DNA from: a virus
Taxonomy: Duplodnaviria; Heunggongvirae; Uroviricota; Caudoviricetes
Strand: one strand, 5' to 3'
DNA length: 64,000 nucleotides
IMG/VR virus record: IMGVR_UViG_3300046474_000237
Coordinates: 7,469-71,468 of that record
The translations under genes and the position numbers were made by a program. Within the stretch, counting starts at the first letter, position 1. Every line of letters starts with the position of its first letter. The notes beneath the pieces were generated by a model. The model was not told the origin of the DNA. It saw only the letters and a list, made by a program, of their open reading frames with translations, and searched no databases. This document shows positions 33,825 to 34,716 of the stretch, in pieces.

Positions 33825-34115
33825 ATGGCAGAGATGACGTTAAAAGAAGCTCTTGAGCTTGCCAAGAAATATGAAGAGGAAGGGGTTATCAGTACTGCTG
33901 CAAAAGCCGTTGTAACCCTGTCAAAAGTCTTCCTGGCGGCTCGGAGTCCTACACTTGATAACCTGGACGTCTGGATCAAGACAAAGCCAGGATGGTACGT
34001 TAAAGACTTCACAGATCAGTGGCTTTATTTCGACAATGAAGAAGCTGCTCGCAAAGCATCTGAGTATATGAACAATTCATTAATTAGAGAGGTACGAGAT
34101 GGAACTCGATACTAA
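33825..34115 (+). CDS. hypothetical protein
   Basis: RBS ggagaaag 6 nt upstream of the ATG. The six-frame ORF starts at 33765. Confidence 0.5.
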   Translation: MAEMTLKEALELAKKYEEEGVISTAAKAVVTLSKVFLAARSPTLDNLDVWIKTKPGWYVKDFTDQWLYFDNEEAARKASEYMNNSLIREVRDGTRY

Positions 34116-34716
34116 AGACATTAAGTTAGATGTGTTTTATTCAGAGCCTAGGACCTGGGTAGGCTCTTCGATGCCAGTAGGCGTTCGTGTAACTCACATT
34201 CCGACTGGGACTTCTGCTACGTGTGATACACAAAGGTCTCAGCATAAGAACAAAGAGATTGCTTTGCAAGATCTGAAGATGATGCTTGAGGCTTTGGGTC
34301 ATGAAAAGTCTCCAGTTCAGCTTGCTCAGTACGAAGCCTTTTCTGAAGCTGCCAGACAAGTCGAAGCAGGGATGGTAGAACTGCGAAAGCTGTTTGAAGG
34401 TTTCAAAGAACCTGTCCAAGAACCTCATCCTGACGATGTTGCTGTAGATAAGTTTGCAGCAATGATGAAAGCTAAGCTTGCAAGCTCTCGTATGAAAGGT
34501 CGCGGTGGCTGGGACGATCCTGAAAAGTGTACTGTTGATAGTTTGGCTGATCTGCTTATTGGGCACCTACCTAAAGGTGATCCTATTGATATCGCTAACT
34601 TTGCAATGATGTTGTGTATGAGAGATGCATCTTTATATACTCTTCAAAAAGCATTCGACAAGCAATGGGGTATCGCATACAACATAGGTCATTTTGACGG
34701 CAAGAACGACATCTAA
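34099..34716 (+). CDS. release-factor (RF-1/peptidyl-tRNA hydrolase) domain protein lacking the GGQ motif
   Basis: VRVTHIPTG...QRSQHKNKEIAL matches the conserved core of class-I RF/ArfB. The position of GGQ is occupied by TWV/GSS. Confidence 0.5.
   Translation: MELDTKDIKLDVFYSEPRTWVGSSMPVGVRVTHIPTGTSATCDTQRSQHKNKEIALQDLKMMLEALGHEKSPVQLAQYEAFSEAARQVEAGMVELRKLFEGFKEPVQEPHPDDVAVDKFAAMMKAKLASSRMKGRGGWDDPEKCTVDSLADLLIGHLPKGDPIDIANFAMMLCMRDASLYTLQKAFDKQWGIAYNIGHFDGKNDI

Follow-up and report, generated by a model that had tools for sequence, protein, structure and literature searches.

The subject of this report is a gene on a 64,000-nucleotide stretch of IMG/VR virus record IMGVR_UViG_3300046474_000237 (positions 7,469 to 71,468 of the record; hereafter the window), which comes from a large phage of the class Caudoviricetes with all of its genes on one strand. 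The gene encodes a protein of two domains (Table 1): an N-terminal head with the catalytic fold of bacterial class-I release factors (RFs), in which the Gly-Gly-Gln (GGQ) tripeptide is replaced by Arg-Thr-Trp, and, behind a helical linker, a C-terminal helical domain that is conserved in phages. An initial annotation, made from the sequence alone, had placed the open reading frame (ORF) exactly and had described it as an RF-domain protein that has lost GGQ; it covered the first third of the protein, and the C-terminal phage domain, the specific replacement by Trp and the family-wide selection are absent from it.

The protein and its lost GGQ

By its sequence, the protein is a genuine RF-1-domain protein without GGQ, and it is not a class-I RF, ArfB or PrfH. 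Its match to Pfam RF-1 (PF00472; residues 29-74, profile positions 34-80 of 116, 38.9 bits, E 9.5e-10) lies above the curated cut-off of 35 bits, residues 3-64 are a match (E 2e-15) to PHROG 20323, which is named 'RF-1 domain peptide chain release factor', and the VRVTHIPTG and RSQHKNKEIAL blocks are both present, in keeping with the RF domain first claimed for it. When all Protein Data Bank (PDB) chains were searched with phmmer, RFs made up 45 of the 46 matches, the best being RF2 (E 2e-8), and the closest sequence and structure matches are domain 3 of RF1 and RF2, with 34-46% identity across ~70 residues and a three-stranded sheet and following helix that can be superposed on it. The NCBIfam models prfA and prfB are matched at model positions ~210-300 alone, with 36-39 bits against cut-offs of 370-423, and the PrfH model TIGR03072 gives 32.2 bits against a cut-off of 166.65. 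There is no match to the PCRF domain (PF03462) and no PxT or SPF motif in the protein, and RtcB, the partner of PrfH, was not found among the ORFs scanned, in a scan of the window that was not exhaustive. The short basic tail of ArfB is absent as well: the C-terminal 98 residues are a folded helical bundle with a net charge of -3, and this acidic bundle rules out an ArfB-like tail. A six-frame hidden Markov model (HMM) search found no second copy of either the RF-1 domain or the C-terminal domain in the window, and none of the PADLOC defence and counter-defence models matched the protein.

In the phmmer alignment to RF2, the query reads 'YSE-PRTWVGSSMPVGVRVTHIPTG', with 'SE-PRTW' under 'SGPGGQ': PRTW lies beneath the PGGQ of RF2, and GGQ has become RTW with a one-residue deletion just before it. 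The initial annotation had put PRTWVGSSM at this position, which the HMMER alignment upholds; inspection of the GGQ column revealed no GGQ after alignment, and the tripeptide occurs nowhere in the 205 residues. Between the Asp of strand 1 and the VRV block the loop holds 17 residues, compared with 18 in canonical domains; the window protein is short by this residue ahead of the Trp, most relatives behind it. An assembly or frameshift artefact at the GGQ position was considered and rejected, as an independent contig (L009, described below) has the same PRTWVGSSM and the pair is under purifying selection.

Table 1. Positions in the window of the RF-domain gene and of the parts of its product (aa, amino acid residues)
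Feature	Position	Strand	Description
RF-domain ORF	34099..34716	+	ATG start, 205 aa, stop codon included; RF-1 domain, helical linker, phage helical domain (ORF list)
GAGAGG Shine-Dalgarno-like site	34087..34092	+	6 nt 5' of the ATG; read directly in the sequence
N-terminal domain, aa 1-67	34099..34299	+	Catalytic (domain-3 / bRF-PH) fold of bacterial class-I RFs
R18 T19 W20 (AGG ACC TGG)	34150..34158	+	G-G-Q position; HMMER alignment to RF2
VRVTHIPTG block, aa 29-37	34183..34209	+	Canonical RF form; H33, P35 and G37 (nearly) invariant in homolog alignments
Conserved block with R46, S47, N51	34234..34254	+	(Nearly) invariant residues of the aligned GGQ-less sequences
Long linker helix, aa 72-102	34312..34404	+	AF2 secondary structure and ortholog alignment
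C-terminal conserved phage domain, aa 108-178	34420..34632	+	Motif HPDDVAVDKFAAMMKAKL..GRGGWDDP..C...L..LL..H..KGDP.D.ANFAMML
C-domain helices			aa 111-135, 146-156 and 162-174; a fourth at aa 179-198, outside the conserved core

The gene overlaps the upstream ORF (33765-34115) by 17 nt. Two modules are joined in that ORF: a small helical one (MTLKEALELAKKYEEEGVISTAAKA), encoded in sister phages by a small gene of its own, and a WIKTKPGWYVKDFTDQW...REVRDG module, which is also found directly upstream of the ortholog at locus L008. On a 31-kb contig with identical sequence (window 34279-34716), the gene call of JGI (P0002) starts at Met61 and yields a protein of 145 residues from which the whole RF-like domain is omitted, so that automated annotation can miss this domain.

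Orthologs, selection and a short-loop branch of RF-1 domains

All orthologs collected (P0001, L009, P0003, L011, L010, P0004 and P0149, in our labelling) have the two-domain architecture, which is known solely from these metagenomic relatives; in the phage collection, no protein covers at least 80% of the query with both domains. P0001 and L009 are 76-78% identical to the window gene, and L009, on an IMG/VR contig of 181 kb, shares 78% nucleotide identity with it. At the catalytic tripeptide, L009 and P0001 read PRTW like the window gene, P0004 (locus L008) reads KTGW and P0149 reads PRGW. Two ortholog lineages keep GGQ, as VGGQ in P0003 (loci L005-L007, L011 and L012) and as HGGQ in L010. GGQ and Trp versions of one gene occupy the same genomic slot in sister phages.

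Selection on the gene was estimated by comparing the window with L009, a pair with a near-saturated dS of ~1 (about 0.7-1.3). The dN/dS ratio is 0.15 for the whole gene, 0.07 for the RF-like head and again 0.07 for the 15 residues of the former GGQ loop (residues 14-28), 0.14 for the C-terminal domain and 0.93 for the last 27 residues. The loop with the Trp is under no less constraint than the remainder of the domain and is therefore not a relic, and its low ratio argues that the loop tip still does something. It is scarcely credible that the gene is what is left of a phage ArfB-like gene in decay and has no function itself. GGQ has indeed been lost here and kept in sister phages, and the JGI call skips the domain, but the ratio over domain and loop at near-saturated dS effectively refutes decay; moreover, the reading frame is intact and preceded by a Shine-Dalgarno-like site, and Trp, Phe or Met is conserved at the Gln position in very divergent homologs.

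These divergent homologs include small proteins of cultured phages: ORF037 of Pseudomonas phage 73 and its counterpart in Xanthomonas phage NR08 have GASAW at the loop, gp148 of Acinetobacter phage ZZ1 has KHSNW, and the Otagovirus group (phiPsa300_006 and others) has GAGGM. An exhaustive HMMER search, in which a profile built from five Trp-type heads was run against 1.84 billion representative proteins, returned 10,231 RF-1 domains at E <= 0.001. Among the 150 best of these matches, GGQ is absent in 29 of 145 new representatives, with Trp at the Gln position in 17, Phe in six and Met in two, counts that show diversity and not prevalence, as the search profile was biased towards Trp. Altogether, 30 or more divergent GGQ-less homologs carry Trp, Phe or Met at the Gln position, Trp being the most common, and several of them come from phage genomes or phage-like contigs. 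The residue before the Gln position is mostly small (Gly, Ala, Ser or Asn) and the one before that is variable; most relatives have Ser-Ala, Ser-Gly or Ser-Asn ahead of the Trp, and some keep both glycines (GGW, GGF or GGM). In an alignment of 34 sequences (33 without GGQ and the GGQ ortholog P0003), D7, VRVTHIPTG, R46, S47, N51, A55 and L59 are conserved in the GGQ-less set, and all 34 match PF00472 and PHROG 20323 and no other Pfam domain.

From the Gln to the Arg of VRVTH the distance is exactly 10 residues in 203 of the 203 GGQ domains collected, and from the corresponding position it is 9 in the Trp and Phe types; for that set, the short-spacing GGQ sequences are P0003 and L010 only, both orthologs of the window gene. 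The window protein keeps the canonical spacing to VRVTH and is one residue shorter before the Trp. Viral contigs L020-L024 (~4000-4130 in each) encode stand-alone RF-1 domains of ~75 residues that have GGQ in a shortened loop (PPGGQHVGSETGVRVTH and similar), and L028 (3908-4498) encodes a 196-residue protein of the SGF type, so the short-loop branch holds both putatively active and putatively inactive forms. As judged from these alignments, there is a phage-associated 'short-loop' branch of RF-1 domains, in which the Gln is sometimes kept and often swapped for a bulky hydrophobic residue. In a neighbour-joining tree of the 64-residue domain with the loop masked, the two GGQ orthologs nest among the Trp and Met types, which, for a short domain and an unsupported grouping, is no more than a hint that the Gln was replaced more than once. 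Other phage proteins described as 'RF-1 domain' (PHROG 20323, 35727 and 19918) belong to the same subfamily, with a head of 65-70 residues whose loop is short and has Trp or Met where the Gln would be. They are annotated just as release factor or as hypothetical and, unlike the window protein, have different C-terminal extensions or none; across phages, the RF-like head is joined to many unrelated extensions.

The glycine-keeping relatives and the GGQ orthologs bear on whether the window protein could be an active peptidyl-tRNA hydrolase, a rescue factor of the ArfB or PrfH type that would work through the loop backbone, with a hydrophobic residue in place of methylated Gln, and would be independent of the host methyltransferase PrmC. 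GGQ in the same-slot orthologs suggests that hydrolysis was ancestral, and an active loop is more plausible for relatives of the GGW, GGF and GGM types. Work by Shaw and Green in 2007 and by Santos et al. in 2013 is said to have found that the Gln side chain matters far less for catalysis than do the glycines and the backbone. Release benefits from methylation of the Gln, and the methylated Gln packs hydrophobically (PMC8012679); furthermore, according to Burroughs and Aravind, Vms1-type factors have no strict need of the di-glycine (PMC6514570). In the window protein, however, both glycines have become Arg and Thr, which makes hydrolysis less plausible here, and mutation of GGQ abolishes hydrolysis in class-I RFs and in ArfB (PMC8012679). 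Given also the missing ArfB-like tail and the low score against the PrfH model (32 bits against a cut-off of 167), we regard an active hydrolase as improbable.

The C-terminal part, an acidic bundle of ~95 residues with four helices, matches PHROG 8298 and 16645 (1.6e-20 and 7e-19) and also PHROG 5040, all of unknown function. The full-length query matches 371 phage records, most of those listed via this domain, which occurs in hundreds of genomes, including those of Pseudomonas PB1-like phages and of phages of Stenotrophomonas, Burkholderia, Erwinia, Rhizobium and Vibrio. In metagenomic members, a core of ~75 residues (HPDDVAVDRFAAAMKAKLAK.R.KGRGGWDDP..CS...LA.ML.EHLPKGDPVDVANFAMML) is 45-69% identical to the query, and the conserved core HPDD..GRGGWDD..KGDPxDxANFAMML is present in the window protein. 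The core is found on varied N-terminal parts, which are R67-DHFR-like, FtsK-gamma or Lar-like, or on none. Its near-invariant polar residues (H110, D112, D113, K124, K126, R131, W138, C144, H156, D164, N167 and R175) suggest a specific binding or active site. None of 25 members matches any Pfam family, a profile search of PDB sequences gave no match, and the matches in a viral structure library are uncharacterised phage proteins only. One phage record of a homolog is labelled a MazG-like all-alpha NTP pyrophosphatase; this identity was rejected, as the domain gave no profile or fold match to the four-helix bundles of the MazG type with their EExxE/ExxD metal ligands.

Genomic setting and the suppressor tRNA

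Besides the RF-domain gene, the window carries a split family-A DNA polymerase, ribonucleotide reductase, ThyX, NAMPT and a NadR-like gene, together with genes for translation and RNA maintenance, namely 21 tRNAs, PTH2, a YqeY-domain protein, Pnkp and Ro60 with a Y-RNA-like element. INPHARED contains no phage with closely similar DNA; the nearest comparison given by the DNA polymerase is an identity of 45-47% to the enzymes of Salmonella phage Arash and of Vibrio phages D69, D181 and D148. Four metagenomic relatives share a gene order of AAA ATPase, Band_7/SPFH protein, small ORFs, RF-domain gene and DUF8296 paralogs, followed by tRNAs, ThyX and a NUDIX/CTP-transferase gene. Beyond this synteny within the clade no conserved functional neighbour was found: the contexts in phage 73, NR08, ZZ1 and phiPsa300 differ, and in Pseudomonas phage 73 the GGQ-less gene comes after the DNA primase gene.

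The conserved upstream pair consists of a 692-residue AAA+ ATPase (28884-30962), which resembles the IetA and TRIP13 models in PADLOC (E 1e-18), and the SPFH/Band_7 protein (31583-32425). Directly downstream of the RF-domain gene, at 34785-37197, lie six tandem paralogs of 116-183 residues (PF26948, DUF8296), which share an N-terminal (M)NEQIKQKW(I/V)EALTSGEY...CCLGVLSDLY motif and are present here in five or six copies in all of the sister loci L005-L008. Pnkp (10709-13144) is an 811-residue RNA repair enzyme of the bacterial type with P-loop kinase, calcineurin-like phosphatase and PNKP-ligase domains. The Ro60 ortholog (58067-59725) matches TROVE (E 1e-34) and Ro60 vWA (E 4e-55), and ~560 nt upstream of it, in a region with short ORFs only, there is a full-length, sub-threshold match to YrlA (57387-57502; 30.1 bits against a gathering score of 69, E 7e-4), which makes the two a candidate phage Ro60/Y-RNA pair.

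Among the translation genes pointed out in the initial annotation, the YqeY-domain gene is found at 54362 (E 1e-14), and one of the two reported PTH2 genes, at 22803, is confirmed (Pfam E 1e-31). The other, at 27466, has no Pfam match at E <= 0.01. Its product (27466-27780) matches PHROG 34073 only, which is of unknown function, and its pairwise BLASTP resemblance to the PTH2 at 22803 is weak (25 residues, E 0.001); it could be a strongly diverged protein of the PTH2 type.

The initial annotation had also noted an amber suppressor tRNA about 7 kb upstream and had linked it to the loss of GGQ. The tRNA itself is confirmed: it lies at 27076-27151, has the anticodon CUA, is well formed and scores 69.3 bits, more than any other Rfam tRNA match in the window. 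Orthologous tRNAs stand at the syntenic position in L005 and L006 (2751-2826 in both), L007 (2515-2590) and L008 (2668-2743), and the four aligned genes (window, L005, L007 and L008) have 88% column identity, encode CCA and, by eye, have a body that looks tRNA-Trp-like. The anticodon is CUA (amber) in the window and in L005-L007 and UCA (opal) in L008; in L005-L007 the RF-domain orthologs keep GGQ, and in L008 the ortholog has TGW. The suppressor specificity has switched between sister phages with no sign of stop-codon recoding. Under the standard code the coding density is 0.83, and the 96 ORFs end in TAA (61), TGA (30) or TAG (5); the five ORFs that end in TAG would be lengthened by 3-29 residues if read through, and the sister loci are alike, which together rule out recoding of TAG. 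The same tRNA(CUA) accompanies GGQ orthologs, so that its co-occurrence with the window gene reflects synteny of the clade and is not tied to the loss of GGQ.

With this, the further proposal of the initial annotation, that the protein is a decoy for host RF1 or a UAG read-through factor, loses its footing. A decoy for RF1 that raises UAG read-through together with the phage suppressor could draw on the proximity of the tRNA, on TAG being the rarest stop codon and on the general slowing of termination to be expected if the peptidyl-transferase centre is blocked. However, the protein has the catalytic domain only and, lacking the PCRF/codon-recognition superdomain and the PxT and SPF motifs, cannot recognise UAG. 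TAG is a rare, ordinary stop, in-frame TAG codons that could be read through are absent, and the TAG-terminated ORFs would gain no more than the short extensions above. In addition, the same suppressor stands beside GGQ orthologs and its opal version beside the TGW ortholog, and GGQ-less relatives occur in phages with no suppressor context. A role as RF1 decoy is thus very improbable.

Possible function and relation to known systems

What remains of the initial interpretation is an RF domain without GGQ, which is confirmed, that would bind the A site without hydrolysis, which is the most economical reading of its homology. On this reading, the protein would occupy the 50S A site and the peptidyl-transferase centre without hydrolytic action, by analogy with Dom34 or Balon, and we consider it a real possibility, though somewhat short of an even chance. 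Domain 3 of RFs and the N-domain of ArfB insert the GGQ loop into the peptidyl-transferase centre (PMC8012679). In the proposed model, the RF-like head would dock in the 50S A site in the same manner; where canonical heads position water by means of a methylated Gln that two glycines hold in place, a bulky hydrophobic side chain, which is Trp in the window protein and Trp, Phe or Met in its relatives, would enter the pocket that takes methyl-Gln, so that the centre would be occupied and the peptidyl-tRNA left intact. The protein would then compete, independently of the codon, with RFs, ArfB, PrfH, tmRNA-SmpB, aminoacyl-tRNA or host toxins acting at the A site, and could serve the phage in infection by modulating or protecting ribosomes, following the logic of Dom34/Pelota and Balon, with the C-terminal helical domain providing a partner-binding, targeting or oligomerisation function. 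Precedents exist among cellular proteins: Dom34 has no Gln and is non-catalytic, and the bacterial baeRF-1 proteins are predicted to be non-catalytic A-site inserts (PMC6514570); Balon was subsequently seen, structurally, to contact the peptidyl-transferase centre from the A site without GGQ and to keep the centre inactive (PMC10901736). Two further points count in favour of this model: the domain is under selection and its replacement is patterned, so the substitution is not random, and the genome invests heavily in translation and RNA maintenance.

Several observations weigh against an A-site occupant. The 66-residue head has a net charge of -1, compared with +3.4 +/- 1.5 in the 203 GGQ domains and a mean of +1.2 in the GGQ-less ones, and the whole protein is acidic, unlike an expected strong binder of ribosomal RNA. 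It has neither a codon-recognition domain nor an ArfB-like basic tail to anchor the head on the ribosome, and removal of the C-terminal residues of ArfB abolishes ribosome binding (PMC8012679). The linker between the domains is highly variable in length among orthologs: the helix of residues 72-102 is missing from P0003 and P0004, and L010 has a longer insert instead. This variability implies that no fixed geometry spans the peptidyl-transferase and decoding centres, and rules out the linker helix as a fixed ruler between them. Furthermore, syntenic orthologs in sister phages (P0003/L011 and L010) keep GGQ, so either the shared function is independent of hydrolysis or the function has changed between sister phages. 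Finally, the absence of hydrolysis and the biological role are matters that we infer, as is ribosome binding, which is argued from homology.

The charge of the head also speaks for a different function, in which the RF-like fold has been repurposed as a binding module away from the ribosome, for tRNA 3' ends, peptidyl-tRNA, a phage transcript or a host protein, with the Trp loop as the binding tip and the C-terminal domain as effector or enzyme. Such a module would have precedents in plant PrfB3 and MRPS35 and would fit the loss of much of the positive charge of canonical domains, the combination of the head with many unrelated extensions across phages and the near-invariant polar residues of the C-terminal domain, which look like an active or ligand site. 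Yet the best-kept blocks of the head are those conserved in ribosome-bound RFs, no partner, RNA element or conserved neighbour was found beyond synteny at the level of the clade, and the C-terminal domain has no detectable enzyme homolog; on balance, we consider a non-ribosomal module unlikely. A decoy for PrmC, the GGQ methyltransferase, is also unlikely, as Trp should not fit the Gln-specific tunnel of its active site.

Taken across the family, the A-site model can be extended to the tentative and rather doubtful proposal that phages repeatedly turned a mini-RF or ArfB-like hydrolase into a 'plug' at the peptidyl-transferase centre, in which Trp, Phe or Met would act as a wedge in the hydrophobic cleft of the A site. 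If true, ribosomes would be held with their peptidyl-tRNA intact, host rescue and release factors or abortive-infection toxins acting at the A site would be blocked, and the family would give viruses an equivalent, of bacterial fold, to Balon and Dom34, as well as being a protein that inhibits peptide release in nature. As ligands of the peptidyl-transferase centre, these proteins would be the first RF-derived viral ones and possible tools for freezing ribosomes with the nascent chain attached; if ribosome binding fails to hold, they would join plant PrfB3 as a second case in which this fold has been recruited for another purpose. Either way, to label the GGQ-less genes 'peptide chain release factor 1', as databases do, is misleading. 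Bacterial-type RF domains are thought of as Gln-dependent hydrolases, and here is a family, with many members carried by phages, that keeps the domain under strong selection and swaps the Gln. Conserved, natural GGQ-to-xxW domains in phages should surprise translation specialists, and, with the gene found in one slot of sister phages with either GGQ or Trp, a natural experiment on the role of the GGQ loop would be at hand, which makes the question directly testable.

The fold and Gln-less relatives of RFs are already known, and the phage genes are in databases as 'peptide chain release factor 1', 'RF-1 domain' or hypothetical. A survey of RFs lists for bacteria the GGQ-retaining RF1, RF2, ArfB and PrfH only, along with one inactive organellar derivative, and covers no phages (PMC6514570). 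In the full-text literature, subscription journals being outside its scope, we found no description of a phage short-loop, GGQ-less RF-1 subfamily or of its fusion to phrog_8298.

Among known proteins, RF1 and RF2 (and PrfH) have VRVTHIPTG and RSQHKNK blocks almost identical to those of the window protein, which differs from RF1 and RF2 in lacking PCRF, PxT/SPF and GGQ. ArfB (YaeJ), ICT1 and C12orf65 resemble it in layout, with a head that is likewise RF domain 3 alone, followed by a linker and a C-terminal part. In ArfB, GGQ is kept and needed, and a short basic tail enters the empty mRNA channel (PMC8012679), whereas the window protein has RTW in a loop one residue shorter and an acidic helical bundle unrelated to that tail. 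Bacterial-type RF homologs that have lost GGQ and taken on a role other than termination are known in PrfB3 of plant chloroplasts, a relative of RF2 without SPF and GGQ that protects and stabilises the 3' ends of petB mRNA (PMC5897788), and in MRPS35, an inactive bRF-PH protein derived from ICT1 that serves a structural purpose in the mitoribosome (PMC6514570). The first is a full-length RF2 derivative and the second a mitoribosomal protein, neither is viral, and we found no report of a short loop or a Trp in either. Closest in proposed action are Dom34/Pelota and Balon, which are likewise RF-derived, non-catalytic A-site ligands without GGQ and to which the role suggested here for the window protein is an analogy. 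They are, however, three-domain, cellular proteins that work with EF-Tu-family GTPases on the ribosome, whereas the window protein is viral, and their fold is unrelated: the RNase-H-like middle domain of aeRF1 as opposed to the alpha+beta bRF-PH domain of bacteria. In the baeRF-1 families, finally, the loop is poorly conserved (PMC6514570), whereas the phage family conserves a specific Trp, Phe or Met.

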